This document shows positions 4,689-56,638 of a DNA stretch of 64,000 nt, in pieces. The position numbers and the translations under genes are program-made. How positions within the stretch are numbered: the first letter of the stretch is position 1; each line of letters starts with the position of its first letter. The DNA lies in IMG/VR virus record IMGVR_UViG_3300028797_000143, positions 24,862-88,861 of that record, one strand, 5' to 3'. A model generated the notes under the pieces. That model worked only from the letters and a program-made list of their open reading frames with translations, did no database searches and was not told the origin of the DNA. Source of the DNA: a virus (taxonomy: Duplodnaviria; Caudoviricetes).

Positions 4689-5078
4689 TTATTTGATGGA
4701 CAGCTTTTCGAGAAGCGTCACGAGTGAGGTGCTGATGGCCGTCAGCTGTATTTGTATTTGGTTCTGCATATCTATCTGCTGGCAGATGGTCTCGTTCTGC
4801 TTTTTGACGACGCTTAGCAGGTCGAGAAGTGCAAGGTTTCCACCCTTAAAGGGAGGTATCTCACCCACCTTGATCTGTTCGGCGCTGTCAGTGATGTAAG
4901 CGTCCACTGTTTCCCTGCCGTATTCCTGACGCAACATATCAAGTTGCTTCTCGGTAAGGTCTATACCATTTGTCTCAACCCTTGAAAGGTTCGACTGAGA
5001 GAGACCTAAGATAGTAGCGAAGTCCCCTTGGCGAATGTCCTTGGCTCTCCGAAACTCTCTAATCTTGAAATTACCCAT
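4689..5078 (-). CDS. CI-like repressor (HTH_3/XRE)
   Basis: IREFRRAKDIRQGDFATILGLSQSNLSRVE; divergent from cro-like gene; start at MGNF. Confidence 0.8.
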   Translation of the reverse strand: MGNFKIREFRRAKDIRQGDFATILGLSQSNLSRVETNGIDLTEKQLDMLRQEYGRETVDAYITDSAEQIKVGEIPPFKGGNLALLDLLSVVKKQNETICQQIDMQNQIQIQLTAISTSLVTLLEKLSIK

Positions 5079-5123
5079 AATATTGTTAATTTTGTATAAA
5101 TGGATGAATATATTAGTGTTATA

Positions 5124-5208
5124 TTTGCATAAATGCAGATAAATTCGTATCTTTGCACAAAGAATAAAACGATGGTGCAAAAGTAATGGAAAATATTCAA
5201 TCATCAAA
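5124..5208. promoter_or_regulatory. overlapping rightward and leftward promoters of the lysis/lysogeny switch
   Basis: Plus: TTTG 5124, TATCTTTG 5148. Minus: TTTG 5205-5208, TACTTTTG 5178-5185. Confidence 0.65.
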
Positions 5209-5452: not shown

Positions 5453-6000
5453 GAGCAGAGTTCTATATTTTCGACAATGAGCTGTGGTGCAAGTCGGACG
5501 ATGGGAGGAACTTCATCGTTGACGAGACCTGTACGGAGGTTATCTCTTATATTATAAATAATGTACGCGCGAGATACCCAGAGGCTTACAAGGCTCTCTC
5601 CAAGCACTACCAGAAGAGTTCTATCAGTGCATCCTACTATCAGTATTTAATGGCAAGGAGGTTCTGTAAGTGCAATTTCGGTTCACTTGATGCCACTTCG
5701 GAGGATGTCCGTAATGACGGAGTGTTCAACTTTGAGAACGTCCAATGTCCCATGAGAGGGGAGTGTCCCTTGGAGGGTGTTGTATGTAATCCCGTTTTTG
5801 ATGCTCACCTCTTGAAGTCCGAGATGAGGGTGATGAAGCTGTGGTATGAAGGACGGACAAAGGAGGAGATAGCCGAGGAGCTGTTCATCTCCCCGGGGAC
5901 TGTGAAGAATCATATTAAGAGCGCCTACCTGAAGCTTGGCGTCCATTCGGAGGCTGAGTTTGTGAGGTACGCAAAAGATAATCATTTATTCACCAATTAA
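5446..6000 (+). CDS. LuxR-type HTH regulator with Cys-rich motif
   Basis: CPMRGECPLEGVVCNP followed by EIAEELFISPGTVKNHIKSAYLKLGV. Confidence 0.85.
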   Translation: MVGAEFYIFDNELWCKSDDGRNFIVDETCTEVISYIINNVRARYPEAYKALSKHYQKSSISASYYQYLMARRFCKCNFGSLDATSEDVRNDGVFNFENVQCPMRGECPLEGVVCNPVFDAHLLKSEMRVMKLWYEGRTKEEIAEELFISPGTVKNHIKSAYLKLGVHSEAEFVRYAKDNHLFTN

Positions 6001-6007
6001 ACGAGTT

Positions 6008-6736
6008 ATGGAACAATTACAATTCAGAACGCTTACGGCAGACGAGATTGAATGCCGCGTAGCACAGGCTGGCAAGAACCAGCAGGGAGGTTGGTGTTCT
6101 CTCTTACTCTACAAGGATGCCCGGTGTGACCAGAGGCTTCTTGATGAGACGGTCGGGTGTTTCCGATGGAAGAGGGAGCATGAGCTCATCAATGGTAACC
6201 TGTTCTGTACTGTCAGTATCAAGGACGGCAGTGGAGAGTGGGTGTCTAAACAAGACGTTGGTACGGAGAGCAGCACGGAGAAGGAGAAAGGCCAGGCATC
6301 GGATGCCTTCAAGCGTGCGTGCTTCAATTGGGGTCTCGGGCGTGAGCTGTATACCTCTCCCAAGATCTTTGTCAACCTCACATCGGATGAGGTTTTCGAG
6401 CAGAACGGCAAGGCCAAGGTAAACCCGAGAGTGACGTTCAAGGTGTCGAGCATCAGCTATGATGATAAGAGGAACATCAGTGCTTTGGTCATCACGGACT
6501 CCAAGGGTGCTGTCCGTTATACCTTTGGCAATGTAAAGGCAAAAGTAACACCTGTTGCAAAGCCTGAGTTGTCTTTGGAGGACGCCAAGAAGCAAATCAG
6601 TGAGGCTACCACTAATGAGCAGCTTGCCGCCATCTTCAAGGCCAATAAGCACCTGCAGAACGACGCCAGTTTCATCGACGCTCTGTCGAATCGTAAGAAC
6701 CAAATCCTGAACGACAATGGAGCTGCCGCTGCTTAA
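6008..6736 (+). CDS. Sak/Rad52-family single-strand annealing protein
   Basis: LLYKDARCDQRLLDE...KQDVG...EKGQASDAFKRACFNWGLGRELY. Confidence 0.8.
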   Translation: MEQLQFRTLTADEIECRVAQAGKNQQGGWCSLLLYKDARCDQRLLDETVGCFRWKREHELINGNLFCTVSIKDGSGEWVSKQDVGTESSTEKEKGQASDAFKRACFNWGLGRELYTSPKIFVNLTSDEVFEQNGKAKVNPRVTFKVSSISYDDKRNISALVITDSKGAVRYTFGNVKAKVTPVAKPELSLEDAKKQISEATTNEQLAAIFKANKHLQNDASFIDALSNRKNQILNDNGAAAA

Positions 6737-8522: not shown

Positions 8523-9146
8523 ATGAAAAGTGAACTATTGAACTACAAGCCGTCCGAGATTGAGTACGTGCTTGATGATGTCGTTGCGGAGACATTCCCG
8601 CAGGAACTTGACTTCATGTCCCTCGAAGGAGGCTCTTTGATGGGTGAGAAGCCCCTGAAGACCAAGCGAGACATCCTTAATTTTATCGGTAAGCATTTCA
8701 CGGCTACGTTCCCCGACGATCAGTTTGCCGTCCGTAAGCTGACACGTATCGAGGAGCAGGCCATCCGCGAGGAGTACTGCGCCCTCACCGAAGACCTCCT
8801 CCCCGTCAGAAAGGCTGAGCTGGAGGAAGCCATCGAGAAGGCCAAGAAGATGAAAGCCGATGCCGAGGCCGCCCTCGCCGCCGTGGTGCAGGACATCGCC
8901 GCCTATGCCGCGCAAGTGAAACAGGGTACCAAGGAGCTTCTGTTGAAGTCCAAGGACACCTTCTGTATCGCCCTCGCGGGTTACTATCTCGTCTATACGT
9001 GGGATGAGGCGAAGCAGACCTTCGTCCTTGCCAATGGTCATAAGGTCGTTGACTCTGGAGAGATTTTCGCCAATGACACCCGGAACAGGGAGATGATGTT
9101 GGAGCTTTTCGGCTGTGAGTTCGAGGAAACGAATGTAGAAGAGTAA
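8523..9146 (+). CDS. hypothetical coiled-coil protein
   Basis: 207-aa ORF with tight operon packing. Confidence 0.7.
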   Translation: MKSELLNYKPSEIEYVLDDVVAETFPQELDFMSLEGGSLMGEKPLKTKRDILNFIGKHFTATFPDDQFAVRKLTRIEEQAIREEYCALTEDLLPVRKAELEEAIEKAKKMKADAEAALAAVVQDIAAYAAQVKQGTKELLLKSKDTFCIALAGYYLVYTWDEAKQTFVLANGHKVVDSGEIFANDTRNREMMLELFGCEFEETNVEE

Positions 9147-10321
9147 TGCCATATATTTTACGTACATACCAAAAAGAAGCTGCCGATGCTGCCGTGGGAG
9201 CGTTTCAGAGAGGTTCTTCAAACGGGCTTCTCGTCCTCCCCACGGCCAGCGGCAAGTCGTTGGTGATAGCAGACATCGCCAGCAGGCTTGACTCCCCGCT
9301 GTTGGTGTTCCAGCCGAGTGTGGAGATTCTTAGGCAAAACTTCGAGAAGATATGTTCGTATGGTATTACCGATGTGGGTGTCTATTCAGCCTCCATGGGG
9401 GATAAGAATATCCGCAGGATTACCCTCGCTACTATTGGAAGCGTCCATAACCACATGGATGATTTCAGGCTGTTTAAATACTGCCTTATCGATGAAGCGC
9501 ATGGTGTATCCTCCAGAGGAGGAATGTACAATGAGTTCATCTTAGACAGGAAGGACAGGGTGGTGATCGGCCTTACGGCAAGTCCCTATAGGTTGGAGAG
9601 GGCTTTCGAAGGAGCTTCTATCCTCACGTTCCTCACGAGGACGCATCCGAGGGTCTTCAGCAAGGTCTTATATGTCTGCCAGACGGGTGACCTGCTGAGA
9701 AGGGGCTTCATCTCTCCTGTAGAGTATACAGACCTCACATCTAAGATTTCATTTGATATAGGAAGGGTAAAGGTCAACTCCACGGGAGCCGACTATGATG
9801 ATGAAAGTCTGAGACAGGAATACGAGAGAAGCAGATTCATGTATGACTTGGAGATGTGGACGCAGAGGATATTACAAGAAGAAAGGAATGGTATCCTCGT
9901 GTTCACAAGGTTCGTCAAGGAATCCATGTATCTTGTAGAACGCCTTAAGACTCATGGTATAAGTGCCGAGGTGGTTTCTGGGAGCACACCGAAGAATGAC
10001 AGAGCGCGTATCGTCAACGACTTCAAGAGTGGGAGGCTGAAGGTTCTCAGCAATGCCAACTGCATGACGATGGGCTTTGACTACCCTGCCTTGGATACCG
10101 TCATCCTTGCCAGCCCTACGAGGTCTCTGGCTCGTTACTATCAGCAGGTAGGACGTGTTGTAAGGGTCTTTGAGGGAAAGAGAGCCAAGGTTATAGACAT
10201 GTGCGGGAGCTATAAGAGATTCGGGGCTTTCGAGGATTTGAGGATTGAGAACCCTCTCGGAGGTAACAGGTGGGTGGTGACATCAAACGGACGACCTTTA
10301 ACAGGTGAACTAATAAAATAA
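9146..10321 (+). CDS. SF2 DEAH helicase (RadD/UvsW-like)
   Basis: PTASGKS (motif I), DEAH, GLTASP, GFDYP, QQVGRVVR. Confidence 0.9.
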   Translation: MPYILRTYQKEAADAAVGAFQRGSSNGLLVLPTASGKSLVIADIASRLDSPLLVFQPSVEILRQNFEKICSYGITDVGVYSASMGDKNIRRITLATIGSVHNHMDDFRLFKYCLIDEAHGVSSRGGMYNEFILDRKDRVVIGLTASPYRLERAFEGASILTFLTRTHPRVFSKVLYVCQTGDLLRRGFISPVEYTDLTSKISFDIGRVKVNSTGADYDDESLRQEYERSRFMYDLEMWTQRILQEERNGILVFTRFVKESMYLVERLKTHGISAEVVSGSTPKNDRARIVNDFKSGRLKVLSNANCMTMGFDYPALDTVILASPTRSLARYYQQVGRVVRVFEGKRAKVIDMCGSYKRFGAFEDLRIENPLGGNRWVVTSNGRPLTGELIK

Positions 10322-10383
10322 AAGACATGAAATACAGATTCTATCCGAGTTTGGATACTTACACTTTTCAGTGGTTTTGAAAT

Positions 10384-10632
10384 ATGGACCTATTTGAGTT
10401 TTTAAAGGGCTTCTCCTCGAAGGATAAGTCCGTCATGAAGCGTTATCATGTGCGCCCAGATAAGATAGACCTCATCTTTAAGCTGAGGTGTGTGGAGTCT
10501 ATCTCCAAGGTCTTCGAGAGGGGTGTGCGGAAGTTGCAAGTCAACCTCTCCAACGGCAAGAAAGCGTACGTGGACGATTACATTGTCAAACTACCCAACG
10601 GAGAGTGGGACGTAATAAGAGATCAGTTATGA
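10384..10632 (+). CDS. hypothetical protein (an upstream in-frame segment from 10327 is cut by TGA)
   Basis: 82-aa ORF with ATGA overlap to NinG-like gene. Confidence 0.6.
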   Translation: MDLFEFLKGFSSKDKSVMKRYHVRPDKIDLIFKLRCVESISKVFERGVRKLQVNLSNGKKAYVDDYIVKLPNGEWDVIRDQL

Positions 10633-11111
10633 TAAGAAGGACACCTTTGAAAAGGACTTCCAAGAAAAGGGAGCCCAACTATACCGCAGATATGGATAGG
10701 GTTTTCCAGTACTATATCAGGCTGAGGGACGTCATGCCGGGAGGGTATGGGAGATGTATCTCATGCGGTAAGATACGACCTTTCAACCACCTTCAGGCAG
10801 GCCATTTTTATAGTCGAAGACATATGAGTACGAGGTGGAACGAAGATAACGTCCATGCCGAGTGCGAGGGCTGTAACTGCTTTGATGGCGATCATCTCTT
10901 AAGCTACCAGCAGAACCTTGCCAAGAAGATAGGCATGGAGAGGATGCAATACCTTGCCGTGGCTCATAACCAGACGAGGAATTGGCATCCCTTCGAGATA
11001 CAGACTATGGTCAAGCACTATGGAGAGGAGGTCATACGCCTCGCCTCCGTAAAGGGTCTGCCCATTGCCGAGGATGTCATGCGTATCATCAGAAAGTACC
11101 AGAAGATGTAA
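10629..11111 (+). CDS. NinG/Rap-like endonuclease
   Basis: YIRLRD...CISCG...AGHFYSR...RWNEDNVHAECEGCN. Confidence 0.8.
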   Translation: MIRRTPLKRTSKKREPNYTADMDRVFQYYIRLRDVMPGGYGRCISCGKIRPFNHLQAGHFYSRRHMSTRWNEDNVHAECEGCNCFDGDHLLSYQQNLAKKIGMERMQYLAVAHNQTRNWHPFEIQTMVKHYGEEVIRLASVKGLPIAEDVMRIIRKYQKM

Positions 11112-11185
11112 AAATTGGAGCACGTCTCACGACGGGCTCCAAATTAACCAATTAAACAGGGAGTTATGAGAACTCGGTCTGTTCG
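11108..11185 (-). ncRNA. candidate small antisense RNA 1 (anti-leader)
   Basis: Minus-strand promoter (TATCTTTG 11189-11196, CTTG 11217-11220), 5' hairpin with CUCAU loop, terminator GGAGC...GCTCC plus T-run; no plausible ORF. Confidence 0.55.
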
Positions 11186-11227
11186 GTGCAAAGATACAAT
11201 GTTATCTTGAATCTTGCAAGTAAATCG

Positions 11228-11291
11228 GTAAAAAGCCTGCTTCCGCAGGTAGAAAAGAGAGAAAACTCTTGAGAGAAATGGAATTATTTAA
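11228..11291 (-). ncRNA. candidate small antisense RNA 2
   Basis: Minus-strand promoter (TACCTTTG 11297-11304, TTTG 11325-11328), terminator CCTGC-GGAA-GCAGG-CTTTTT; no ORF. Confidence 0.55.
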
Positions 11292-11371
11292 CGATGCAAA
11301 GGTATTGATAATTATTGATATATACAAATATATGCAACGGAATTTCGCGCCTTTCGGCCATTATTTAGTAT

Positions 11372-11418
11372 TTTTAACTATTTTCTTTTGTCTATATGCG
11401 AAAAAAGCCGTACCTTTG
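11372..11418 (+). promoter_or_regulatory. extended phage promoter, copy 1
   Basis: TTTTAACTA-N6-TTTG-N20-TACCTTTG. Confidence 0.8.
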
Positions 11419-11454
11419 CATATAGAGAGGAAGAAACTCTAAAATCACAAAGAA

Positions 11455-11751
11455 ATGGAAAAGACAACAACATCACATCTAATAGCTGACTATCACAGCT
11501 TTGTGAGAGATTTGAAGTCACAGTTCAACGCTGTTCAAGTATTGGAGAAATCCTTCTTCGAGCTTGAAGACCTGTGCGAGTGGTCAATAGTAAACGGAGT
11601 GACCTGCCTCAATGACAAGAATGAGCGGGTGAGTGTCGTGGATGAGACGCTTGGCAGGCAGCAAAACGAAATGTATGAGAAGCTTTGCAAGGCCGTGAAA
11701 GACTTGCATTGCATGCTTTCATCGGGTGTATCATGCTTTAATAAACAGTAA
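11455..11751 (+). CDS. hypothetical protein
   Basis: First ORF after extended promoter. Confidence 0.65.
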   Translation: MEKTTTSHLIADYHSFVRDLKSQFNAVQVLEKSFFELEDLCEWSIVNGVTCLNDKNERVSVVDETLGRQQNEMYEKLCKAVKDLHCMLSSGVSCFNKQ

Positions 11752-11752
11752 T

Positions 11753-12139
11753 ATGGATTTGAATCAATTCATCAAGAAAAGCCACCTCCGAGCCGTTGAG
11801 AAGTTCAACGCAGATCTGGAGGCATTCGTAAAGGAAACGGGGGACAATACCCTCTATGAGGACGTAAACACGCCGTTTACCCTTTCAAACGTGAGAGTCG
11901 AGAACGGTAAGCTCTGCTACACCTTCGATGGTGCGGAGGAGAGCGAGAACCAGGTATACTTGGATTCGGAAGATAATCAGTACTACGAGTCCGAGGGCTT
12001 GGACAGCATCCCAGAGTATATCAAGTTTTGGAGAGCGTGCCTCCGGCGTGCGAGGAGATATTGGACGATGAGCCCAGAGCAGCTTGACAGACTCTCCGAT
12101 GGAGAGGAAGAAGAGGAGGACTCCGAATTAACCGATTAA
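11753..12139 (+). CDS. hypothetical acidic protein
   Basis: ORF; start moved to MDLNQF. Confidence 0.7.
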   Translation: MDLNQFIKKSHLRAVEKFNADLEAFVKETGDNTLYEDVNTPFTLSNVRVENGKLCYTFDGAEESENQVYLDSEDNQYYESEGLDSIPEYIKFWRACLRRARRYWTMSPEQLDRLSDGEEEEEDSELTD

Positions 12140-12189
12140 ACAGTAACCCGCCCTGCGGGTAGTGTCCCGCAGGGCTTAATAATAAGAAT

Positions 12190-12393
12190 ATGAGAAAAGA
12201 CAAGAATTTCACCTTTTACAATGGCGGTATGGAGTTGTGTCATGTGACCTCATCGCCAGATCAGGCGCATCCGTTCGAGATTATGATACGGAGAATGTGC
12301 CGTTACGCAGGTAGGTTTGGGTATAGTATCTCCTACGATGTCAAGAATGTGGAACAAAAGGAAAAGACGATGACACAGGATGACCTACATTGA
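12190..12393 (+). CDS. hypothetical protein
   Basis: ORF overlapping initiator start. Confidence 0.5.
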   Translation: MRKDKNFTFYNGGMELCHVTSSPDQAHPFEIMIRRMCRYAGRFGYSISYDVKNVEQKEKTMTQDDLH

Positions 12394-13480
12394 TTTGATA
12401 AACAACTTTTGGAAGAAGAATCAGGTTTCTCCATTGTCGAGCACAGAGATAGCATTTTACTTCTATCTGCTAAAGGAATGTGACTCGTTGGAGTGGAGTA
12501 ATCCGTTCAAATTGCCTACGCGCAAAATCTGCTTTGAGCTCGATTTTCGGAAAGATACAATCACGAGCGTTAGAAATTCTTTGAAGCAAAAAGGGTTTAT
12601 CGATTTCACGAAAGGTGACAGAAGGGCATCCGACCCAGAGTACTCTATCTTAGACGAAAGTGGTATTTTGGTACAAATAACGTACCAAAAGCCGTACCAA
12701 AAAGCGTACCAAAAGCCGTACCAAAAGGCGTACCAAAACACGGACCAAAGCCCCAAAAATGGCCAAAATTCGGAAAAAATCGGACAAAACGAAAATCCCC
12801 CCATACCCCCCTATAAAGAGCTAATGGATAGTTTAAAAGAACTGTCTTCTGACGAAGACAGACAGAAAGTTAACATTGTCGGTCGGTCTTTTATGGAGAA
12901 AAAGAGGGATTTTTGCGATGAAGCGGACGCCTATATTCCCAAATACGGACAGCAGATGATTGACGAGTTTTGTGAGTATTGGACTAAGGAAGTTGAAACA
13001 GACACCCTAAGGTTCGAAAAACAGAACAAGTTTTTTATGGCGGGGCGGCTCGCGACGTGGGCTAAGAATAGCATGACAACGCAGAGGTCTGTCACTGACA
13101 TAGAGTACAAAACCCAGCTCTACAACATCAATTGGGACAAAGTGAAGGCATGGTATGTCGGCCTCGGGTTGGTGTTGGAACGTTGGACGGACAGACGGAA
13201 GCGGGCTTATATCTCGGTTTATGACTCTTACGGAAACGCGGACGCTTTCAGGGAAGCCCTGAAGCGGTTCGGACAGGAAGTGAAGAAGTCGGATTGGATA
13301 TTAGGCTTGGCGGGAAGTCCGATGCGTGATTTTGAATGGCTGTTTACGCTTGACAATTTCGCTCTGGTGGTAGACGGCAGGTATAGTAAAAACTACAATT
13401 TAGAGAAAAATGGGAAACGACAAAGAAGTGCCACAGCAGCGCCCGAGCACTCCAACGAAGAGTACTTCGCGGGGTTTTAA
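12380..13480 (+). CDS. replication initiator / replisome organiser (N-terminal wHTH)
   Basis: MTYIDLINNFW...FYFYLLKECDSLEWSNPF N-terminus; internal repeats; upstream of DnaC-like and DnaB genes. Confidence 0.75.
   Translation: MTYIDLINNFWKKNQVSPLSSTEIAFYFYLLKECDSLEWSNPFKLPTRKICFELDFRKDTITSVRNSLKQKGFIDFTKGDRRASDPEYSILDESGILVQITYQKPYQKAYQKPYQKAYQNTDQSPKNGQNSEKIGQNENPPIPPYKELMDSLKELSSDEDRQKVNIVGRSFMEKKRDFCDEADAYIPKYGQQMIDEFCEYWTKEVETDTLRFEKQNKFFMAGRLATWAKNSMTTQRSVTDIEYKTQLYNINWDKVKAWYVGLGLVLERWTDRRKRAYISVYDSYGNADAFREALKRFGQEVKKSDWILGLAGSPMRDFEWLFTLDNFALVVDGRYSKNYNLEKNGKRQRSATAAPEHSNEEYFAGF
12681..12740 (+). repeat. five 12-bp tandem repeats (probable origin iterons)
   Basis: CGTACCAAAA-NN x5 inside the initiator gene, encoding YQKP/YQKA. 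Confidence 0.8.
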
Positions 13481-14075
13481 GCTCCCTATAGCCCCCGATG
13501 AGCTGCTAAAGAGGATAGGCATAGAATATCTCCGCGATGTACGGAAGAGAGGACGTGAGTTCAAGAACACGGACTACCTTAAGCGGCAGGCGAAGGAGAT
13601 AGCAGATTTCCTCGTTGAGGAGCGAGACAAGTACGGCCTTATGATATGCGGTAAGGTCGGGAACGGCAAGTCCACGATGGGACGCGCTATCTGTAAGGTT
13701 GTGAACAGCCTTATTGAGGAAGTAAAGAAGGGAGAACGATTCCCGTGGGACTACATGTCGATGGTCGATGCACGGGATATGGTAAGAACCTTCATCAGGG
13801 ACTATGACGAGGGATTCCGAATGATAAAGAGCAGGAAATACCTCATCATAGACGATTTAGGGACAGACCAGAAGGACGTCTCTTTGTATGGGACTATCTT
13901 TAATCCCTTCATGGAGCTGTTGGACTATCGCTACGAGCACCTTCTCCCGACGATAATCATCTCAAACCTCAATGCGCGGGACATCGCTGAGAAGTATGAA
14001 GACGAACGTCTGCCGGATAGGATGAGAGAGATGTTTAAGATTCTTGTTTTCGAAGATAAGTCGTTTAGGGTATGA
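13410..14075 (+). CDS. DnaC/IstB-like AAA+ helicase loader
   Basis: GKVGNGKST Walker A; LIIDDLG Walker B; IIISNL; DRMRE. Confidence 0.85.
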   Translation: MGNDKEVPQQRPSTPTKSTSRGFKLPIAPDELLKRIGIEYLRDVRKRGREFKNTDYLKRQAKEIADFLVEERDKYGLMICGKVGNGKSTMGRAICKVVNSLIEEVKKGERFPWDYMSMVDARDMVRTFIRDYDEGFRMIKSRKYLIIDDLGTDQKDVSLYGTIFNPFMELLDYRYEHLLPTIIISNLNARDIAEKYEDERLPDRMREMFKILVFEDKSFRV

Positions 14076-15442
14076 GTGAGGTATTGGTGAAAGACATACC
14101 CTGCGAGGAACTTGTCTTAGGAACGATTCTTGATTCTGGTAAGATCTACGACCACGTTCTCGAAACTTTGGATGATGACTGCTTCTATGACGGCATGCAT
14201 CTCGGGGTGTGGCAGGCGATGGCAGAGGTCAAGAAGAAGGGGGAGAATATAGACATCATCACTGTCACGGCAGAGCTGGCGCGTGAAGGCTCCACGATAC
14301 AGCCCCATGAAGTGATGGGGCTCGCATCCAAGAATCTTGTAAGCACTGTTTATATCGACAACTACACCTCACGTCTTAAAGACCTCAGCCTTCGCAGGAG
14401 GTTATGGCGGCTCGGGCAGAAACTCGTGAATGCAGGCCTTGCCGAGACGGAAGAGGTGGAGGATATCCAGCAGCTTGCCACCGAGGAGTTGAACGGGTTG
14501 TTCGACAAGGCAGAGGGGACGTTTACACTCACGGATGCTCTTGTAAAGCTCTTGAACATCATCAGTAATAACATGACCAAAGGAGCTATCACAGGTACTC
14601 CGACAGGATTCAGGAAACTCGATGAAAAGGGCGGTTTGCATGGCTCAGATTTGATAATCATCGCAGGTGAGACCAGCCAGGGCAAGTCGTCTATGGCGCT
14701 TTCGATAGCAAACAACGTCATTCAAAGCGGTGAGAAATGTGCGTTTTTATCCTTGGAAATGACGAAAGAGCAGTTGGCAGCACGTCTTGTGGCAATAAGG
14801 TCAGGTGTCCCAGCGAACACGATTATGTACGATGGGAACATGAACACCAGCCAACTTTTTGCTATAGACAGTGCCAAGGGCTCTCTCCCCGGTGAGAACC
14901 TGTATTTCGATGAGAGAGGTACGATAAGCCTTGAAACGATACTTCTCTCAATAAGAATGATGGTTATGAAGTATGGTATCAAAGGTGCTTTCGTAGATTA
15001 TCTGCAGATTCTCAATGTCAACAGCAGGAACAACGGATACACGAGAGAGCAGGCCATGGGAGATGCGTCCAGAAGGCTTAAGAACCTCGCCAAGGAGTTG
15101 AACATTTGGATTGTCGCGCTGAGTCAGTTGAGCAGGAACCAGCAAGACCCCGTACCTTCTTTGGCTCGTTTGAGGGACAGCGGACAGATCGCGGAGGCGG
15201 CAGACGTGGTGATGTTAGTCTACAGGCCAGAATATTACAATAGAACCTTCCCCCACCCCTTCGAGTATTTGACGGATGAGGAGGTGAAAGGCAAGGCGAT
15301 GATAGACGTGGCCAAGGGTAGAAACATCGGAGTGTTCAAGTTTCTCGTAGAGTTTAATGCAGAGACAACGCACTTCCATGATATAGACAACGGGGAGTCC
15401 GTCTTTGAGCAGATGCCTGTTGAAGAAGATGCCCCATTTTAA
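14072..15442 (+). CDS. dnaB: replicative DNA helicase
   Basis: GETSQGKS, FLSLEM, FVDYLQIL, VALSQLSR, LRDSGQIAEAADVV. Confidence 0.93.
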   Translation: MSEVLVKDIPCEELVLGTILDSGKIYDHVLETLDDDCFYDGMHLGVWQAMAEVKKKGENIDIITVTAELAREGSTIQPHEVMGLASKNLVSTVYIDNYTSRLKDLSLRRRLWRLGQKLVNAGLAETEEVEDIQQLATEELNGLFDKAEGTFTLTDALVKLLNIISNNMTKGAITGTPTGFRKLDEKGGLHGSDLIIIAGETSQGKSSMALSIANNVIQSGEKCAFLSLEMTKEQLAARLVAIRSGVPANTIMYDGNMNTSQLFAIDSAKGSLPGENLYFDERGTISLETILLSIRMMVMKYGIKGAFVDYLQILNVNSRNNGYTREQAMGDASRRLKNLAKELNIWIVALSQLSRNQQDPVPSLARLRDSGQIAEAADVVMLVYRPEYYNRTFPHPFEYLTDEEVKGKAMIDVAKGRNIGVFKFLVEFNAETTHFHDIDNGESVFEQMPVEEDAPF

Positions 15443-15468
15443 ACAATAACCAATTAAACAAAGCAGTT

Positions 15469-15786
15469 ATGATTACAAACGAAAAACAGAGAGACCTTTT
15501 GAACAAGGAGTTCAAGGTCAATGAACACTTCAAAATTACCAGAGGGTACTACGAAGACATGCCAGACCCCATGTTGGCATGGACGTGGAGTAATAAGCAA
15601 ATGGAAGAGCTTGCGAAGAACATTAGCAAGAATCTTGCTCCATATGAAGAGGAGAACCCCGAATATTCGGATGAGGACTTTTGGGCTACGATGGAAAACG
15701 AAGCCGTAAAGATGGGAATGGAATACTATGAAGACTTTGAGGAGGACTATCTCGCAGAGTTGGAGTATAAGTGGAGGAATTTGTAA
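15469..15786 (+). CDS. hypothetical acidic protein
   Basis: ORF preceded by AACCAATTAAACA leader. Confidence 0.7.
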   Translation: MITNEKQRDLLNKEFKVNEHFKITRGYYEDMPDPMLAWTWSNKQMEELAKNISKNLAPYEEENPEYSDEDFWATMENEAVKMGMEYYEDFEEDYLAELEYKWRNL

Positions 15787-16037: not shown

Positions 16038-16065
16038 TCGATTGAATCTCAAAAGATTTTAGTTT

Positions 16066-16112
16066 TTTTAACTATAATAATTTGCAAATATCGCATAAAA
16101 CCCGTATCTTTG
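16066..16112 (+). promoter_or_regulatory. extended phage promoter, copy 2
   Basis: TTTTAACTA-N6-TTTG-N20-TATCTTTG. Confidence 0.8.
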
Positions 16113-16161
16113 CATAAAGAAAGATAAGAAGAGTACACTAAACCAATTAAACAGAAAAGTC

Positions 16162-16599
16162 ATGAAAAAGGAAATCAGAAAAGATGTCAGAGAGTACATC
16201 CTAAGCAGAGTAAACGAGACGCTGGCACGCCTCGGAGTGAGCGAGAAGGTCGTAGAGACGAACGAGTGGGAAGATAAGTACCGCGACAAGCTTCACTATA
16301 ATTTCGAGAGTGCACCCATCAAGCAGATGCCGATGATGTTCAAGAGACTTGTGGTAAGCGGCCACCTCGTAAGCGTCGAGACGAAAGAAGATGACAGGTT
16401 CTTCAAAGTCTCTCAGCAGAACGACATCGTTGTAGCGGTCTTCGGCTACGAATACAACCACTTCGGAGGAGGCTCCAACGGCTGTGACATAGGCCGCATG
16501 GTCTTCGCAGTAAGCAAAGATCTCCCCAAGAGTTTCGAGAGTGAGATGGGTGATGTGGCAGACGTATATATCCGCAAGTTGGAAGGAGTAACGATATGA
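16162..16599 (+). CDS. hypothetical protein
   Basis: First ORF after promoter and leader motif. Confidence 0.7.
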   Translation: MKKEIRKDVREYILSRVNETLARLGVSEKVVETNEWEDKYRDKLHYNFESAPIKQMPMMFKRLVVSGHLVSVETKEDDRFFKVSQQNDIVVAVFGYEYNHFGGGSNGCDIGRMVFAVSKDLPKSFESEMGDVADVYIRKLEGVTI

Positions 16600-33872: not shown

Positions 33873-33930
33873 TATATAAGAAAGAAAGGAAAGCCCTTTC
33901 AAACAGAAACCAATTAAACAGAGTACAGCT

Positions 33931-34395
33931 ATGGGAATGTTCAGCTTTTTCACACAGGACACCGACGAGAGAATCGTTAATGGCAAGCCAATGCACGTTG
34001 TCATGGTAGACAACAAAGGTAATCAGTATGTCGAAGAGTGCTACGAAGGCTACGGAGTATTTGGAGGCAAGGACTACTACGAACTCCTCGCAGAGATGAA
34101 TGGTCACGAGGTGGTCAAACTTCTGCACGGCATGGGATACGCAGTAGAAGACAAGGATGGTAAGAACCATCACTTCGACTCCGAAGAGCAGGCAAAAGAC
34201 AAGCTTCGCTCTATAGGCATTGAACTCGCTTTCGACGGACACCCTCACGGAGACAATCCGAACGTGTTGCACCCGTCACTCACAGCGAATGGCGAGTATT
34301 TCAACGGAGAACCACCCGCCGCAGACCCAGACCAAGGGTTCACGGATGAGGAGATTTGGGGCGATTACTATGACTTTAACGAGGAGGAAGACTAA
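33931..34395 (+). CDS. hypothetical acidic protein (YEGYGVFGGKDYY)
   Basis: First ORF after promoter and leader. Confidence 0.75.
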   Translation: MGMFSFFTQDTDERIVNGKPMHVVMVDNKGNQYVEECYEGYGVFGGKDYYELLAEMNGHEVVKLLHGMGYAVEDKDGKNHHFDSEEQAKDKLRSIGIELAFDGHPHGDNPNVLHPSLTANGEYFNGEPPAADPDQGFTDEEIWGDYYDFNEEED

Positions 34396-34586: not shown

Positions 34587-35425
34587 CACAGCTTACAAAG
34601 CCCATGTTGGCTACAGGATATGATAAGACCCGTGTGAAGTTCCCATGCATCGTCCAGACTAAATTGGACGGCGTGAGAGCGCTTCTCTGTTTGATTGGTA
34701 ATGAGGTACACATCCTTTCACGCACGGGGAAAGAGTATTATGTACCACACCTGAGAGAGTGGGCAGAGGGTCACAGAGACCTTCTCCCCCTCGACGGTGA
34801 AATCTACGCCTACAAGGATTTGACGTTCCAGCAGATCTGCTCGGCAGTGAAATGCAAATCGGATTGGACGGATAAGCTTAAGTTCGTGGCGTATGATAGA
34901 CCAATAACAGAAGAGACAAACATCAAAAGGTGGTCAAACCTTCTATCTGACTTGGAAAAGGTACAAGACCCCGTTAATCTCTGCCAGACGATAATATGCC
35001 ACTCTTTTGAGGAGATAGAACGATGGCATGACTTCTTCGTACAGCAAGGCTACGAGGGTGCTATCATCCGTAATATGGATGGTATGTATATCGAAGGAAG
35101 AAGCGGGAATCTTATGAAGCTGAAGAAATTCGACACTGACGAATACGAGATAGCTGATGTGATAGAGGCCAGCGGACAGGACAAGGGCACGGCAATATTC
35201 AAGCTGGTGGTGGCCGACTTCCTGTGGACGGAAGAGGCTCACCCAGCGGGCAAGCCATTTACGTTCTTTGCCCGCCCGACTGGGAGCAAGGTGCTCCGTG
35301 CAAGCTATCTGCGAGACCGTGAGAAGCTGATAGGCAAGCAGTGTACCATCCGGCATTTCGGATTCACGGACGGCGGTGTCATCCCCCGCTTCCCTGTGGC
35401 GTTAGGAATTAGAGACTATGAGTAA
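34583..35425 (+). CDS. ATP-dependent DNA ligase
   Basis: KLDGVRA (motif I), LDGEIY, YEGAIIR, LMKLK, RFPV. Confidence 0.9.
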   Translation: MTQLTKPMLATGYDKTRVKFPCIVQTKLDGVRALLCLIGNEVHILSRTGKEYYVPHLREWAEGHRDLLPLDGEIYAYKDLTFQQICSAVKCKSDWTDKLKFVAYDRPITEETNIKRWSNLLSDLEKVQDPVNLCQTIICHSFEEIERWHDFFVQQGYEGAIIRNMDGMYIEGRSGNLMKLKKFDTDEYEIADVIEASGQDKGTAIFKLVVADFLWTEEAHPAGKPFTFFARPTGSKVLRASYLRDREKLIGKQCTIRHFGFTDGGVIPRFPVALGIRDYE

Positions 35426-35604
35426 CCAATTAAACAGTATGAGTTATGAAGATAGTAACATTGACATTCGTTGTCAGCGACAAGGTGGCTGATGACATTC
35501 AGAACGATTTGGCGTGGGGTGATATAGGCAATGCTGTTGAAACGTTGAATGCGAACTGTGACGAGAGTGACTATGACATAGAAATTATAGACTTATGATG
35601 GATA

Positions 35605-35687: not shown

Positions 35688-35743
35688 CATATAGAAAGGA
35701 AGGGAGAGCCCTTCGAGTTAAAAACCAATTAAACAAGAAAGTT

Positions 35744-36415
35744 ATGGAACTAAAAGAAATTCTATTTGGCACCCTGGAGCCGCAAGAGAAGTTGGAGCGC
35801 ATCAACACCATTTCAGGGAAGACGTTGTTGAAGCCGTATGTGATGTTACCCGTCATAAGGCGCATCGTAAAAGAGTGCGGAAAAGAGGGTAACTTCCGTG
35901 TTAAGCACGACAGGCAGCTTGGAAATCGATGGAACTCTATTGTGAAGGGAATATATAACTACAAAGGAGAAATCTTCGTCGATGTATATATCCAGAGCGA
36001 TAAGACCGACACCAACATACCAGTCCTCTATGACAACCTCCTTGGCGGCGGTGTCAGTCGTGTAGAGAGCCACATCGGGAACGCCACGTACCGAGAGGAT
36101 GAGAAGGAGGCTGTAGTACGAGGGCTTCTTTCAGAGTATGTCTATTACAAGTATATCGAGAAGGAGGCGAGAGAAGCGCAGGAGAAGATTGACAACCTAC
36201 TCCACTACTCGATTACCAATCCCGTTTTTGATTACTACTATAAGAGATGGGACGGATGGCATCGTATGGACTTCGACAAAGACCTCAGAAATCGTTATTA
36301 TGGCGGTAAGGAAGCCGTAGAGGAGTATGCAAAGGCTCATGTGGACGAGCTGACAGGCAAGAGCGTCAGTGAGCTTCAAGAGATCTACAAGCAGGTATTC
36401 ATCGGTAAAATCTAA
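35744..36415 (+). CDS. hypothetical protein
   Basis: Start moved to MELKEIL after leader motif. Confidence 0.7.
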   Translation: MELKEILFGTLEPQEKLERINTISGKTLLKPYVMLPVIRRIVKECGKEGNFRVKHDRQLGNRWNSIVKGIYNYKGEIFVDVYIQSDKTDTNIPVLYDNLLGGGVSRVESHIGNATYREDEKEAVVRGLLSEYVYYKYIEKEAREAQEKIDNLLHYSITNPVFDYYYKRWDGWHRMDFDKDLRNRYYGGKEAVEEYAKAHVDELTGKSVSELQEIYKQVFIGKI

Positions 36416-37387: not shown

Positions 37388-37445
37388 CATATAAGGAAGA
37401 AGGAGGAGTGCTCCTTTAATCAAGAACCAATTAAACAGAAAAGTT

Positions 37446-37913
37446 ATGTTACAGACAGAGTTTTACGAAAGGACAAAGGACAACCTCACAGGTGAGGAGT
37501 ACGCAAAGGTAGAACATCTCTACAATTCAGTCCAGATGGATAAGGATGAGTTCTGCAGAGAGTGGATGCGTCACGAGAGGGACGATAAGATGATAGCAGA
37601 GCTGATGGTCACCATCAACAACTTGGAACGCAAGAGCCAGGAGTTGGAGTTAGACAACAAGCGCCTCATGAATGACTTCAAGAAGGCCATGAGGCAGCAC
37701 GAGGAAGAAGTTAAAAGTGATGCCGCTGCCTATAAGAGAAGCATGGAGGACTTCGGGCGCAAGATCATCGTGAACGCAAGCGACGATTCCTGCCTTTACA
37801 GCATCATCGAGGAGGAGTTCGGAATAGACTTCATCATCATGGTAAAGCTTGAAGAGGACATCGACTTGGAGAAGTCCGAGAGAGAGTATCTTGCCAACAA
37901 ACTAAAGCGCTAA
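37446..37913 (+). CDS. hypothetical coiled-coil protein
   Basis: First ORF after promoter and leader. Confidence 0.7.
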   Translation: MLQTEFYERTKDNLTGEEYAKVEHLYNSVQMDKDEFCREWMRHERDDKMIAELMVTINNLERKSQELELDNKRLMNDFKKAMRQHEEEVKSDAAAYKRSMEDFGRKIIVNASDDSCLYSIIEEEFGIDFIIMVKLEEDIDLEKSEREYLANKLKR

Positions 37914-37917
37914 GAAG

Positions 37918-38433
37918 ATGTTACGGTTTGCCTTATTGAACTACACTCCCAAGCGGTATATGAGACGTGCCAGCTTCGAGGCGCAGGAGTCAAATCGTTA
38001 CATCATTGACTTCAAGAACGGACGCAAGTATGCCATCCGAATCATAACGGATATGGTTTGTGAGACGCTATCGAAGACGAACATGGATAACACCATTATC
38101 GTGAACATCCCTGCAAGCTGTGAGAGGACAACAGAGCGGAGGTACAGGACGTTCATGAATGATGTGTGTGACAGGTGCGGGGCTGTGAATGGCTTCGGGC
38201 ATGTCCATGTCTTTGGGAAGAGGGAGAAGTCACATATCATACGTCACCACAGCCACCTTGACAATGTGAGGATAGACAATGACTTCTTCCGTGGTCGCAG
38301 GGTGATAGTGGTTGATGACATCTGTACCACAGGACAGACATCAAATAGTTTCATAGAACGCCTGAAGATGGCAGGTGCCGATGTTCGGATGGCGTTATTC
38401 ATAGCAAAGACAAAGAAATTCAAAACCAATTAA
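37918..38433 (+). CDS. phosphoribosyltransferase-fold (ComF-like) protein
   Basis: VIVVDDICTTGQT PRPP-binding loop. Confidence 0.8.
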   Translation: MLRFALLNYTPKRYMRRASFEAQESNRYIIDFKNGRKYAIRIITDMVCETLSKTNMDNTIIVNIPASCERTTERRYRTFMNDVCDRCGAVNGFGHVHVFGKREKSHIIRHHSHLDNVRIDNDFFRGRRVIVVDDICTTGQTSNSFIERLKMAGADVRMALFIAKTKKFKTN

Positions 38434-38440
38434 ACAGATT

Positions 38441-39340
38441 ATGGAAAAATCAAAACGGCTCTGTTGGGCACCAACAAAACATTTTACTGAAAATGGGATT
38501 GACTATCGCATCAGCATAGAGGTAAGCCTCCATGATGATTGTAAGAACGGACATTGTGATTTCCACCTCACAGGAAGCGTGTATAAGTACGGACATCGAA
38601 ACCCAGAGGTTTGTGGCTGTATTCACGAAGAGATAGAGAAGTACTTCCCTGAGTTGCGAAAGTTTATCCCGCTGCACTTATGCAACTATCTCGGTCATCC
38701 GAGTTACCCAGAGGCAAATGGCCAGTATTTCATCAAGCACGAAGGGAAAGAAGTGGCTATGCGTTATTTGCGCATCACTTCGGATGAGTTCTCGAAGTTG
38801 TCGGCTGTAGGAGATAAAGAAGAGCGTCCTTACTTCAAGTACCTCCTATACAAACTTGGAATAGTAGACCGCTGGAAGACGGAGGCTGATGAGTTCATCG
38901 CTTTCCTCGAAGAAAAGACAGGGATGAAGTGGGAAAACCCTTACGCTGAAAGCGGTGAACGTAACGTGATGCATCTAACAGATGAAGAACGTGAATCTAT
39001 AGAGAAAGCAGTTGCCTTGGGTTATTACACGCCACAGGCCATCGAAGAGCGTGTAAGAGTGCGTCATCAGGCCATACAACAGGCGAAACGTGATGAGGTT
39101 ATCAAACGCTATGAGGAAGAGACCCGCAAAGCCCGTGAGGAGCGCGACGTTAAGCTGTATATCTTTGACAGCGGATTGCCGATTGATAACGTCATCTACT
39201 ACGACCATACGAAGAAGGTCGTGTTTAATTGGCTTGACTTTAAGCCACAGATCAGCCAAGAGGACTTTGTGGACTTTCTCAACAGTGTGGATTATTCTAA
39301 ATTGCCAAAAGGCGTAACATTTGAGATTAAACAGAAATGA
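38441..39340 (+). CDS. hypothetical protein
   Basis: 299-aa ORF preceded by leader motif. Confidence 0.75.
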   Translation: MEKSKRLCWAPTKHFTENGIDYRISIEVSLHDDCKNGHCDFHLTGSVYKYGHRNPEVCGCIHEEIEKYFPELRKFIPLHLCNYLGHPSYPEANGQYFIKHEGKEVAMRYLRITSDEFSKLSAVGDKEERPYFKYLLYKLGIVDRWKTEADEFIAFLEEKTGMKWENPYAESGERNVMHLTDEERESIEKAVALGYYTPQAIEERVRVRHQAIQQAKRDEVIKRYEEETRKAREERDVKLYIFDSGLPIDNVIYYDHTKKVVFNWLDFKPQISQEDFVDFLNSVDYSKLPKGVTFEIKQK

Positions 39341-41123: not shown

Positions 41124-41711
41124 ATGAAACAGATAGAATTTTACAGCTACGATGATGAGGTTTGGTACAGGAATACCGATGGCCATACCGAGGTTCTTAG
41201 TGAGAACAGCAGAGAAATCATCGACTTGATGTATGACACTCTTAAAAGGGATTTCAAAGAAAGCTTTGCAGCCCTTAGAAGCATCTACGGGATCAGTGAG
41301 ACAAATCTACCATACTATAAGTATGTTATGGTAAAGCGGTTCATCAAGTGTAACTTTTCAAGGGTTGACACCACGTATATAGACTTGGAATCGCTCGGCG
41401 ATGTCAATGTCATAAACCTTGAAAAGGTTGACTGCCCACTTCGTGGTGAATGTCCGTATGAAGGTCTTATCTGCCAGCCGCGTATATCCTCAAACCTCAC
41501 GGAAAGAGAGCTGACGGTGGCGACGTATCTGTATGATGGTAAACGTAAAGATGAGATAGCGAAGCTGATGTTTCTTTCGGTAGATACAATAAACAACCAT
41601 ATCCGAAGAATCTACAGGAAACTTAACGTTCACTCGGAAGTCGAGTTCGCAAAGTATTTCGGTTCAATGAGAAACATAAAGACGCAGAAATATAACCGAA
41701 AAGAATCTTGA
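41124..41711 (+). CDS. LuxR-type HTH regulator with Cys-rich motif (paralog of 5446-6000)
   Basis: CPLRGECPYEGLICQP...EIAKLMFLSVDTINNHIRRIYRKLNV; promoter TACCTTTG at 41083. Confidence 0.85.
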   Translation: MKQIEFYSYDDEVWYRNTDGHTEVLSENSREIIDLMYDTLKRDFKESFAALRSIYGISETNLPYYKYVMVKRFIKCNFSRVDTTYIDLESLGDVNVINLEKVDCPLRGECPYEGLICQPRISSNLTERELTVATYLYDGKRKDEIAKLMFLSVDTINNHIRRIYRKLNVHSEVEFAKYFGSMRNIKTQKYNRKES

Positions 41712-41732
41712 ATTTCTTTCTGTTTAATTGGG

Positions 41733-41776
41733 CCCTACCCTCTCACTGCCAAAAGCATGATTGGGTAGGGTTTTTT
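41733..41776 (+). terminator. intrinsic terminator
   Basis: CCCTACCC...GGGTAGGG followed by TTTTTT. Confidence 0.7.
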
Positions 41777-41796
41777 GATGTCGAAAAGTTTAGTAT

Positions 41797-41843: not shown

Positions 41844-41881
41844 CATATAGAGAAGAAAGGAACACATTAAACAGAAAGAAA

Positions 41882-42616: not shown

Positions 42617-42725
42617 GGCTCCAAATTAACCAATTATACAGGGTAATATGTACTTTATAGCGTCAATTGAAAGAAAAGCAATGAAATATTTTGAAGATTT
42701 GGAATAAATACTTACCTTTGCAAAC

Positions 42726-56321: not shown

Positions 56322-56485
56322 GACGGAAGAAGGTCTATATCGATGAGTTGCCCGAGTGTTGCTACACATGCAGGCACTACTCACCGAGGCATGGCAAGAA
56401 AGCCATGGGATATTGTATGAAATGGTATAAGGAGAGAAAAGCATCCGATAAATGCGGCTCATTCAAATCAAAGATGAATAGTTAG
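56318..56485 (+). CDS. small Cys-rich protein (55 aa, below cutoff)
   Basis: MRRKKVY...CCYTCRHY...C...C; ATGA overlap. Confidence 0.5.
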   Translation: MRRKKVYIDELPECCYTCRHYSPRHGKKAMGYCMKWYKERKASDKCGSFKSKMNS

Positions 56486-56503
56486 TAGTTAGGTTAGTTT
56501 CGA

Positions 56504-56535
56504 AGACCCGCCGTCGTGAGATGTTGGGTCTTTTT
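56504..56535 (+). terminator. intrinsic terminator with CGTCGTGAGA loop
   Basis: AAGACCC...GGGTCTT followed by T-run. Confidence 0.65.
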
Positions 56536-56540
56536 AATAT

Positions 56541-56587
56541 TTTTAACTATAAATATTTGTGTGAATCAAAAATAAGTAGTACCTTTG
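56541..56587 (+). promoter_or_regulatory. extended phage promoter, copy 9
   Basis: TTTTAACTA-N6-TTTG-N20-TACCTTTG. Confidence 0.8.
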
Positions 56588-56638
56588 CATATAGGGAAGA
56601 AAGAACCCTTAGTAATAACCAATTAAACAGTAAGAACA

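Follow-up and report, generated by a model that had tools for sequence, protein, structure and literature searches.

The known phage antisense RNAs Sar, OOP and C4 each control one gene or one operon and were all described in phages of Proteobacteria. The phage sRNAs compiled in a 2025 review include none from Bacteroidota (PMC12197685). C4 of the temperate phages P1 and P7 is a 77-nt RNA that acts in trans: it does not overlap the phage mRNA that it controls, blocks synthesis by annealing to the ribosome-binding region, and is tied to the control of an antirepressor; it is cut from the transcript of its own target and concerns a single operon, icd-ant (PMC12197685). P22 Sar and lambda OOP (~70-77 nt) have their own promoter and an intrinsic terminator and are transcribed in the direction opposite to the neighbouring operon, OOP being located at the 3′ end of the upstream gene, by the replication genes. 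Both are cis-encoded and overlap a single target, the start region of ant for Sar and the 3′ end of cII for OOP (PMC12197685). In phage T4, one factor, RegA, competes with the ribosome at the start regions of ~30 early mRNAs, which have in common an A/U-rich element located at the AUG or immediately before it; this factor is a protein of 122 aa and its targets follow a loose consensus (PMC3014915). On the host side, GibS and other trans-acting sRNAs of Bacteroides thetaiotaomicron are transcribed from promoters with the Bacteroides consensus TAnnTTTG, end in an intrinsic terminator, carry a conserved single-stranded seed directed to start regions and act without Hfq or ProQ. GibS itself is chromosomal and represses two metabolic mRNAs by pairing across their start regions, without Hfq (PMC7366714).

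The present work concerns a locus, sRNA1, located at the 3′ end of a ninG gene in a temperate phage. It revealed a conserved, structured, non-coding unit and, at many start sites of the phage, a complementary tag that is conserved as well. Like RegA, the proposed RNA would superimpose a dispersed post-transcriptional regulon on transcriptional control. Unlike RegA, it would be an RNA that recognizes an exact motif of 11-14 nt; it encodes no protein and therefore has neither the fold nor the RNA-binding groove of RegA, so that the resemblance is functional only and implies no homology. Like C4, it would act in trans in a temperate phage, and the leader of the KilAC antirepressor gene of this phage carries a degenerate copy of the motif. 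However, in contrast to C4, a separate promoter and terminator delimit the predicted RNA, which is encoded opposite to the operons of its targets and far from at least a dozen matching leaders. It resembles Sar and OOP by its size, promoter and terminator, and OOP also by its location, but only its U-tract overlaps ninG whereas its conserved part matches distant genes. It shares with the B. thetaiotaomicron sRNAs the host group, the promoter type, the intrinsic terminator and a single-stranded seed for start regions; unlike the longer GibS, with which it has no sequence similarity, it is phage-borne and aimed at phage genes. More generally, sRNA1 has the features expected of a trans-acting sRNA: a transcription unit of its own, the lack of coding capacity and a conserved, accessible seed matching multiple sites. 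Overall, the sequence comparisons suggest that sRNA1 is a phage-borne base-pairing sRNA with a tagged multi-gene regulon, and it is a member of none of the compared systems. It most likely works as a single switch for many phage genes, and no such RNA switch has been described for phages of the Bacteroidales group. The leader motif itself was not found in the literature in this sense.

The window, i.e. the whole stretch of DNA that was analyzed, is the right-hand 64 kb of a virus record of 88,861 bp from IMG/VR. Nearly all genes of this phage are carried by the plus strand and its promoters follow the Bacteroidota scheme (TTTG, 20 nt, TAnnTTTG). The phage is temperate; it has an HTH_3 repressor gene (4689-5207, minus strand), two GerE/LuxR regulators and one KilAC antirepressor, and its relative L138 is a prophage that adjoins host ExbD/MotA genes. 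The gene located just upstream of the sRNA1 locus (10629-11111) encodes a NinG homologue (PF05766) whose named relatives come from Prevotella. A megablast search of positions 9000-13500 against the phage collection gave no match, and an exact 25-mer taken from the sRNA1 locus is absent from IMG/VR. The sRNA1 unit comprises the following parts:

11217..11220, minus strand: -33-like element CTTG of the sRNA1 promoter, 20 nt upstream of the -7 box, read from the sequence
11189..11196, minus strand: -7 box TATCTTTG (consensus TAnnTTTG), reverse complement of these positions
11110..11184, minus strand: predicted sRNA1 transcript of ~72-75 nt, from the fold and the covariance model
11154..11184, minus strand: predicted 5′ hairpin with a two-part stem and the loop CUCAU
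11146..11157, minus strand: putative seed GUUUAAUUGGUU, located between the two hairpins and largely unpaired; it complements the leader motif AACCAATTAAAC exactly
11115..11142, minus strand: predicted terminator hairpin with a GUGA (GNRA-type) tetraloop at 11127-11130, from the fold and the alignment
11110..11114, minus strand: terminator U-tract, read from the sequence, overlapping the ninG stop codon (TAA, 11109-11111)

The start of the transcript is placed to within a few nucleotides and its 3′ end in the U-tract. The preliminary description, made from the sequence of the window alone, had proposed a minus-strand Bacteroidota promoter at 11189-11196 that drives a folded non-coding RNA ending in an intrinsic terminator. 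The promoter was found at this position, and the RNA and its fold were reproduced: an outer stem AACAG/CUGUU, an inner stem GAGUU/AACUC and a CUCAU loop, followed by a second hairpin and UUUUU. The 3′ arm of the first hairpin includes the first bases of the seed (CUGUU). This RNA carries the complement of AACCAATTAAACAG (11146-11159) and that of GGAGTTATGAG, and contains no AUG. Its predicted free energy is -26.8 kcal/mol (z = -4.5) and none of 200 shuffled sequences folds as well; the covariance model R1 recognizes it with a score of 87.7 bits (E = 1.5e-16). At gathering thresholds, Rfam cmscan detected only a tRNA in the window, and a permissive scan of 10900-11500 gave nothing relevant; no Rfam family, C4 included, matches sRNA1. 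The U-tract is the only part of the unit that overlaps ninG, and none of the motif-bearing genes overlaps the unit. It should be emphasized that the minus strand of the genome contains 28 occurrences of TAnnTTTG, so that a lone -7 match is weak evidence, and that the -33 element of the window lineage (CTTG) differs from TTTG. The promoter match of sRNA1 counts because it is conserved in relatives.

The preliminary description had also considered that the segment could be translated on the plus strand as a gene of 14 aa. An open reading frame of 14 codons is indeed present there in the window, but its counterparts have 20 codons in L138, five in L137, nine in L161, seven in L294 and 13 in L150, with unrelated sequences, and its ATG is replaced by ATA and ACA in L301 and L302. 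Since its length and sequence vary and its ATG is missing in two relatives, this frame is not a gene, which favours the RNA. No conserved ORF was found on either strand of the sRNA1 unit.

Homologues were sought on contigs encoding NinG homologues, by pattern scans of IMG/VR and of JGI metagenomes, and with the covariance model R1. This search revealed 13 distinct members of the unit in related and more distant phages or prophages, and their comparison supports the earlier proposal of a promoter-to-terminator, non-coding, minus-strand RNA gene. The sequence data suggest that this family belongs to temperate phages of Bacteroidales. Some of the patterns required the seed and the loop, so that the invariance of both is partly built in for the members found in this way. 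However, four members (L138, L301, L302 and L304) were found by NinG synteny, without recourse to the RNA sequence, and they share these invariants. The identity of NinG with that of the window goes down to about 50% among the relatives, and the lineage of G003, G004 and G006 has a different neighbourhood and a GC content of 40%. The scans also gave negative results: the 14-mer alone retrieved from IMG/VR only single, mostly chance matches, and a pattern including the -7 box had no match. A loose pattern applied to genome contigs gave 120 listed matches, almost all of them due to chance; the only real one, L257, corresponds to the same prophage as L161. On the contigs of two NinG homologues, P0019 and P0020, the genes are ordered differently and the sRNA1 unit is missing. 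A weak match of the covariance model, L305, was rejected because the seed is absent.

Among the nine aligned NinG-linked variants, the only invariant columns are those of (i) the -7 box TA..TTTG, (ii) the seed G(U/C)UUAAUUGGUU and (iii) the GUGA tetraloop of the terminator. In the -7 box, T1, A2 and T5-G8 are found in all nine variants, whereas the two n positions are TC, AC, CC, AT, TA or CT. The only exception in the seed is one C in L137, which differs from the targets of L137 at one base. A -33 element is located 19-20 nt upstream of the -7 box in eight of the nine variants (TTTG in L138, L137, L150 and L294, CTTG in the window, L301 and L302, GTTG in L304); none was found at this spacing in L161. 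On the seed strand, a U-rich tail follows the terminator stem in all nine variants; on the plus strand, an A-rich motif follows the hairpin instead of a U-tract. The CUCAU loop, in which an anti-AUG had been noticed, does not keep this feature: L301 and L302 have no CAU, and in others this triplet lies outside any loop.

Covariation in related phages, which had been suggested as a check of the RNA, was found. In the alignment of the 13 members, which was fitted to the model so that the figures somewhat favour the structure, 83% of the cells of the whole structure are paired compared to 64% in shuffled alignments, and the covariation score is 0.53 compared to 0.21 in shuffles (none of 500 reaches the observed value) and to 0.10-0.15 in controls with slid partners. 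For the terminator helix, the same alignment gives 93.7% of paired cells, with compensatory changes in 9 of 11 pairs; a separate RNAalifold analysis of the terminator stem, whose sequence varies freely while it stays paired, gave such changes in 9 of 10 pairs. In the 5′ hairpin, 6 of 11 pairs show changes on both sides. This hairpin directly precedes the seed in all nine NinG-linked variants although its sequences are largely unrelated, and the seed is unpaired or mostly unpaired in every minimum-energy fold of these variants. The first four or five bases of the seed are paired within the 5′ hairpin, which counts against the reading favoured below.

The RNA can be assigned to the strand that bears the seed. 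The folds contain 25 G-U pairs on this strand compared to six on the opposite one, the fold of the seed strand is the more stable in eight of the nine variants, and only this strand shows a U-tract after the hairpin and a GNRA loop. Furthermore, the unit is antisense to its neighbours in the window and in G005 but co-directional with them in G003, and the order promoter-hairpin-seed-terminator stays with the strand of GUUUAAUUGGUU in both G003 and G005. In G003, the unit is located 28 nt upstream of a gene devoid of its own promoter, for which it may serve in cis as leader or attenuator.

The sequence complementary to the seed is widespread at the gene starts of this phage. The 14-mer occurs seven times exactly in the window, once at the sRNA1 locus and six times in gene leaders, in agreement with the six genes initially reported to carry a perfect 14-nt target. 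With at most one mismatch, 11 copies were found in the window, all on the plus strand, compared to 0.01 expected. The whole 88.9-kb genome contains nine exact 14-mers and 13 exact copies of the 11-nt core ACCAATTAAAC, the latter all on the plus strand. Twelve of the core copies are followed, 5-11 nt further on, by the start ATG of an ORF of 40-299 codons; the remaining copy belongs to the sRNA1 locus, whose ATG starts a frame of only 14 codons. The following leaders were retained as predicted targets, along with the degenerate leader of the antirepressor gene:

5992..6002, plus strand: predicted target, core ACCAATTAAAC, 5 nt before the ATG of the Erf-like ssDNA-annealing gene (6008-6736); duplex of -22.9 kcal/mol
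15448..15461, plus strand: predicted target, 14-mer with one mismatch and an exact core, before ORF 15469-15786; duplex of -25.5 kcal/mol
16141..16154, plus strand: predicted target, exact 14-mer, promoter 16105, ORF 16162-16599
33908..33921, plus strand: predicted target, exact 14-mer, promoter 33865, ORF 33931-34395; duplex of -25.5 kcal/mol
35424..35437, plus strand: predicted target, exact 14-mer, ORF of 50 codons from 35446; -31.4 kcal/mol, the best duplex besides the locus itself
35723..35736, plus strand: predicted target, one mismatch, promoter 35680, ORF 35744-36415
37425..37438, plus strand: predicted target, exact 14-mer, promoter 37380, ORF 37446-37913
38424..38437, plus strand: predicted target, exact 14-mer, ORF 38441-39340
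41861..41874, plus strand: degenerate leader AACACATTAAACAG with two mismatches, promoter 41836, KilAC/ANT antirepressor gene 41882-42616
56617..56630, plus strand: predicted target, exact 14-mer, promoter 56580, ORF 56639-57037

Eleven promoters of the plus strand carry an upstream TTTTTAACTA element, and 10 of them are followed by the leader motif (with at most two mismatches), compared to none of the six promoters devoid of this element. Other copies of the motif are located at gene junctions inside operons. Most of the target products belong to no known family; those that could be assigned are the Erf-like annealing protein and, with two mismatches in its leader, the KilAC antirepressor. 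The targets had initially been described as accessory genes. This description is too simple: they correspond to the transcripts of one promoter class and to internal operon junctions, and include the Erf-like recombinase.

The motif is also found before ORF starts in every relative for which enough sequence is available (L138, L137, L308, G003 and G005). L138 carries four exact and three near copies in 20 kb and the L308 prophage five exact copies and one near copy on the gene strand, the copy of the unit itself being included in both cases; L137 has two exact copies besides its unit. In G003, six sites (with up to two mismatches) precede ORF starts between 46 and 51 kb, and in G005 three sites are located at 59.5-61.2 kb; in both, the target sites lie on the same strand as the sRNA gene, in the sense that is complementary to the sRNA. 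The short loci L301 and L302 each contain one further copy. The 5.1-Mb genome of the host that carries L308 contains six exact 12-mers, all on the prophage contig C25 and five of them within ~9 kb on one strand. Since the copies in this host genome are confined to the prophage contig, the motif is a phage tag rather than a host translation signal. Two other roles of the motif were considered. A DNA operator was rejected since the motif is not palindromic, is strictly strand-specific and is positioned relative to ATG codons and not to promoters. A pairing of the leaders with 16S rRNA was set aside, the rRNA region concerned being probably inaccessible to mRNA; what we take to be a universal rRNA stretch, GUUUAAUU, has 8 nt in common with the sRNA1 seed.

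Duplexes were predicted with the 5′ part and the seed of sRNA1 as the query, the full-length RNA being uninformative because its GC-rich terminator dominated the results. About two thirds of the best 26 sites of the plus strand are motif-bearing leaders, with predicted duplexes of -20 to -31 kcal/mol compared to a background of -9.1 ± 3.4 kcal/mol. These duplexes usually cover the motif and, beyond a small internal loop, also the (A/G)UUAUG of the start codon. In four of six lineages, the sRNA paired best with the targets of its own lineage (binomial probability ~0.009, from small samples that are not fully independent). For example, the sRNA locus and its targets share ...AAACAG in the window phage and ...AAACATC in L308.

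Other elements of this phage are complementary to leaders and associated with a terminator:

11230..11328, minus strand: second tandem unit, sRNA2, with a predicted RNA of ~60 nt, directly upstream of sRNA1 on the same strand
11325-11328, minus strand: -33 element TTTG of sRNA2
11297-11304, minus strand: -7 box TACCTTTG of sRNA2
11236-11249, minus strand: terminator of sRNA2, with its U-tract at 11230-11234
41713..41778, plus strand: anti-leader element UUUCUUUCUGUUUAAUUGG with an intrinsic terminator after it (z = -3.7), located in the 3′ UTR of the GerE/LuxR-family gene 41124-41711

sRNA2 is antisense to the leader and start codon of gene 11455, whose promoter is the only one of the TTTTTAACTA class without the leader motif. 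This second unit is kept in L138, L301 and L302. Its longest match to the start of the downstream gene is 10 nt in the window, a length reached in 32 of 2000 shuffles, and 12 nt in L301 (three of 2000 shuffles). In the 3′ UTR of the GerE gene, CUGUUUAAUUGG is included in a 16-nt exact complement of the antirepressor leader (41866-41881). Anti-leader seeds next to terminators are thus present three times in this phage.

The reading that we favour, with a probability of about 0.65, is that the unit would be the gene of a trans-acting base-pairing sRNA that represses many early phage leaders by blocking initiation of translation. Transcription would start at a promoter of the host type (TTTG-like element, 20 nt, TAnnTTTG) and end at the ninG stop codon through the GNRA-looped terminator. 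The exposed seed GUUUAAUUGGUU would then pair with AACCAAUUAAAC, 5-11 nt upstream of the start codons of at least 12 genes, and the duplex, covering about -25 to +3, would keep the 30S subunit off and repress the translation of the whole set. Bacteroides mRNAs have no Shine-Dalgarno sequence (PMC7366714). Since the mRNAs of Bacteroidota, devoid of this sequence, need an open A-rich leader, a duplex over the start region should repress. A single RNA would thus fix the threshold of the early regulon: it would either silence leaky early mRNAs in the lysogen or shut down the early genes later. The sRNA promoters are devoid of the upstream element of the target promoters and are therefore probably regulated differently. 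This fits a lysogenic threshold against leaky transcripts, but a shut-off of the early genes at a late stage is just as possible. That the RNA is made, pairs with the leaders, blocks initiation and represses is what we infer from the features of Bacteroides mRNAs given above and from the repression exerted there by GibS across start regions (PMC7366714). Stoichiometry may limit the effect, since one sRNA gene would face more than a dozen strongly promoted targets.

Other explanations of the locus agree with part of these data. The minus-strand RNA could be real but have a mainly local function in cis, as an antisense RNA against read-through transcripts of the ninG operon, by analogy with the action of lambda OOP on cII. 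With sRNA2 it would build, at the boundary of two plus-strand operons, a barrier of convergent transcription and RNA duplexes or an RNase III processing site, the match to the other leaders being secondary. Two tandem minus-strand promoter-terminator units are located exactly at this boundary in the window lineage, L138, L301 and L302, the U-tract abuts or overlaps the ninG stop codon, and read-through from the ninG operon is expected, as the hairpins of the unit are not followed by a U-tract on the plus strand. However, an RNA that is antisense in cis matches its partner with any sequence, so that such a role imposes no sequence constraint. It leaves unexplained (i) that the 12-nt seed alone stays constant in a unit that otherwise drifts, (ii) that this seed corresponds to the motif of at least a dozen distant start sites, and this in every lineage, and (iii) that the form of the unit is kept in G003, where it is co-directional with its neighbours. 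We consider a mainly local function to be unlikely, but a local role in cis may coexist with the trans role. The seed could also be kept for a partner from the host, either an mRNA or an RNA-binding protein, while the phage leaders would share their sequence for a reason of their own, such as the enhancement of translation. A constraint from outside the phage would explain more easily the stability of a seed that is frozen across phages whose proteins are ~50% identical and whose GC content ranges from 40 to 50%, but freezing is also expected when many targets depend on a single regulator. The single host genome that was examined has exact complements of the seed only on the contig that bears the prophage, and a limited search found no host candidate; this explanation seems very improbable.

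Attention must also be paid to the plus strand, since the sRNA1 locus itself reproduces a leader with its start codon. It shows all the hallmarks of a leader (a hairpin, the motif, then GGAGTTATG 6 nt further on), and partial duplicates of the locus are present on the plus strand at 12118-12143 and 42616-42645. The functional product could then be carried by the plus strand, as a leader copy in a 3′ UTR acting as a decoy for a factor that binds AACCAAUUAAAC (a protein or the ribosome) or as a short regulatory ORF, the minus-strand promoter being incidental. Because the locus copies a leader, its complementarity to the leaders and the lineage-specific extension of this complementarity would also be expected if this plus-strand copy were the functional one. 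A regulatory ORF hardly agrees with frames of 5 to 20 codons that have unrelated sequences and no ATG in L301 and L302, and the features that are conserved (TAnnTTTG with a -33 element at 19-20 nt, the GNRA loop, the U-tract and the more numerous G-U pairs) all belong to the other strand. Furthermore, in G003 and G005 the motif copy of the locus is on the strand opposite to the target genes, and in G003 it is opposite to the neighbouring genes too, so that no plus-sense operon transcript would carry it. We give this possibility scarcely any weight.

If the proposed trans-acting sRNA is real, phages of the dominant gut phylum would have their first described sRNA, and a phage would for the first time be seen to control a dispersed regulon by means of a single RNA and a leader tag common to the targets. 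It would give a handle on the control of translation in hosts that do not use Shine-Dalgarno pairing, and the pair formed by the seed and the tag could serve as a portable knock-down tool for the genetics of Bacteroides and Prevotella. A wider view is that the motif and the sRNA form an RNA language shared by a whole group of Bacteroidales phages: the sRNA of a prophage would silence its own early genes and those of incoming relatives with the same leaders, the motif would be kept as the A-rich, translation-enhancing leader required in a host without Shine-Dalgarno pairing, and, with sRNA2 and the anti-leader of the 3′ UTR added, early expression would be largely governed by RNA-RNA interactions. 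This view is speculative and rather doubtful; if it holds, the resulting cross-immunity would be much broader than the heteroimmunity due to C4 of P1 and P7. Taken as a whole, a confirmed sRNA1 family would also give a handle on how lysogeny is stabilized in gut prophages and, possibly, on a cross-immunity of related phages that is based on RNA.

The antisense potential directed at the leader motif, the short A-rich tag upstream of at least 12 phage start codons, extends beyond sRNA1, the predicted minus-strand RNA whose seed is complementary to it. Features noted in the window besides sRNA1 are:

11230-11328, minus strand: second small transcription unit, in tandem with sRNA1, with promoter and terminator
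41713-41778, plus strand: anti-leader element (complement of the leader motif) in the 3′ UTR of a GerE/LuxR gene, UUUCUUUCUGUUUAAUUGG and then an intrinsic terminator
12118-12143 and 42616-42645, plus strand: two partial duplicates of the sRNA1 locus, GG(G/A)CTCC(A/G)AATTAACC(A/G)ATTA(A/T)ACAG
56475-56541, plus strand: lone terminator whose CGUC-GUGA-GAUG top is identical to that of the sRNA1 terminator
11368-11383, 16062-16077 and nine other places: element (T)AGTATTTTTAACTA, upstream of plus-strand promoters

The tandem unit has a perfect promoter (TTTG-20-TACCTTTG), and its predicted RNA (~60 nt) corresponds, in shortened antisense form, to the leader and start codon of gene 11455, which comes next. 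This unit is conserved in the relatives L138, L301 and L302, which carry the NinG-linked sRNA1 unit. As a separate observation, the DnaB helicase gene of L302 (8696-10606) includes a LAGLIDADG domain and therefore probably contains an intein.

The element in the GerE/LuxR 3′ UTR shares the anti-leader core of sRNA1 and shows an exact 16-nt complementarity to the KilAC antirepressor leader; the antirepressor gene is located ~150 nt downstream. As for the partial duplicates, the stop codon of ORF 11726-12139 falls within the one at 12118-12143, and hairpins lie downstream of this duplicate; a 19-codon ORF comes after the other. The lone terminator, preceded by AGUUAG-type repeats and located just upstream of a promoter (56580), is devoid of the seed and matches the covariance model of the sRNA1 family weakly (28 bits).

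The element (T)AGTATTTTTAACTA is common to 11 promoters, where it sits 5-7 nt before the -33 TTTG, and the leader motif is present almost without exception in this promoter class. Possible roles for it are those of an UP element or a regulator site; genes for two GerE regulators lie nearby.

Outside the window, the following sRNA1-type or candidate sequences were noted:

L315 (G003, from a distant lineage) 9839-9945 and 14499-14612: two copies of an sRNA1-type unit, co-directional with their neighbours
L171 (Bacteroidales MAG contig) 1375-1457: candidate, GGUUUAAUUGGUU and then a GAGA-loop terminator

The L171 candidate, scored by the covariance model at 28.9 bits (E = 0.003), is a possible further member of the family. 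Some 28 nt downstream of each G003 copy comes a gene with a degenerate AACCAA(T/A)AAA leader but lacking its own promoter; these units may double as leader or attenuator.
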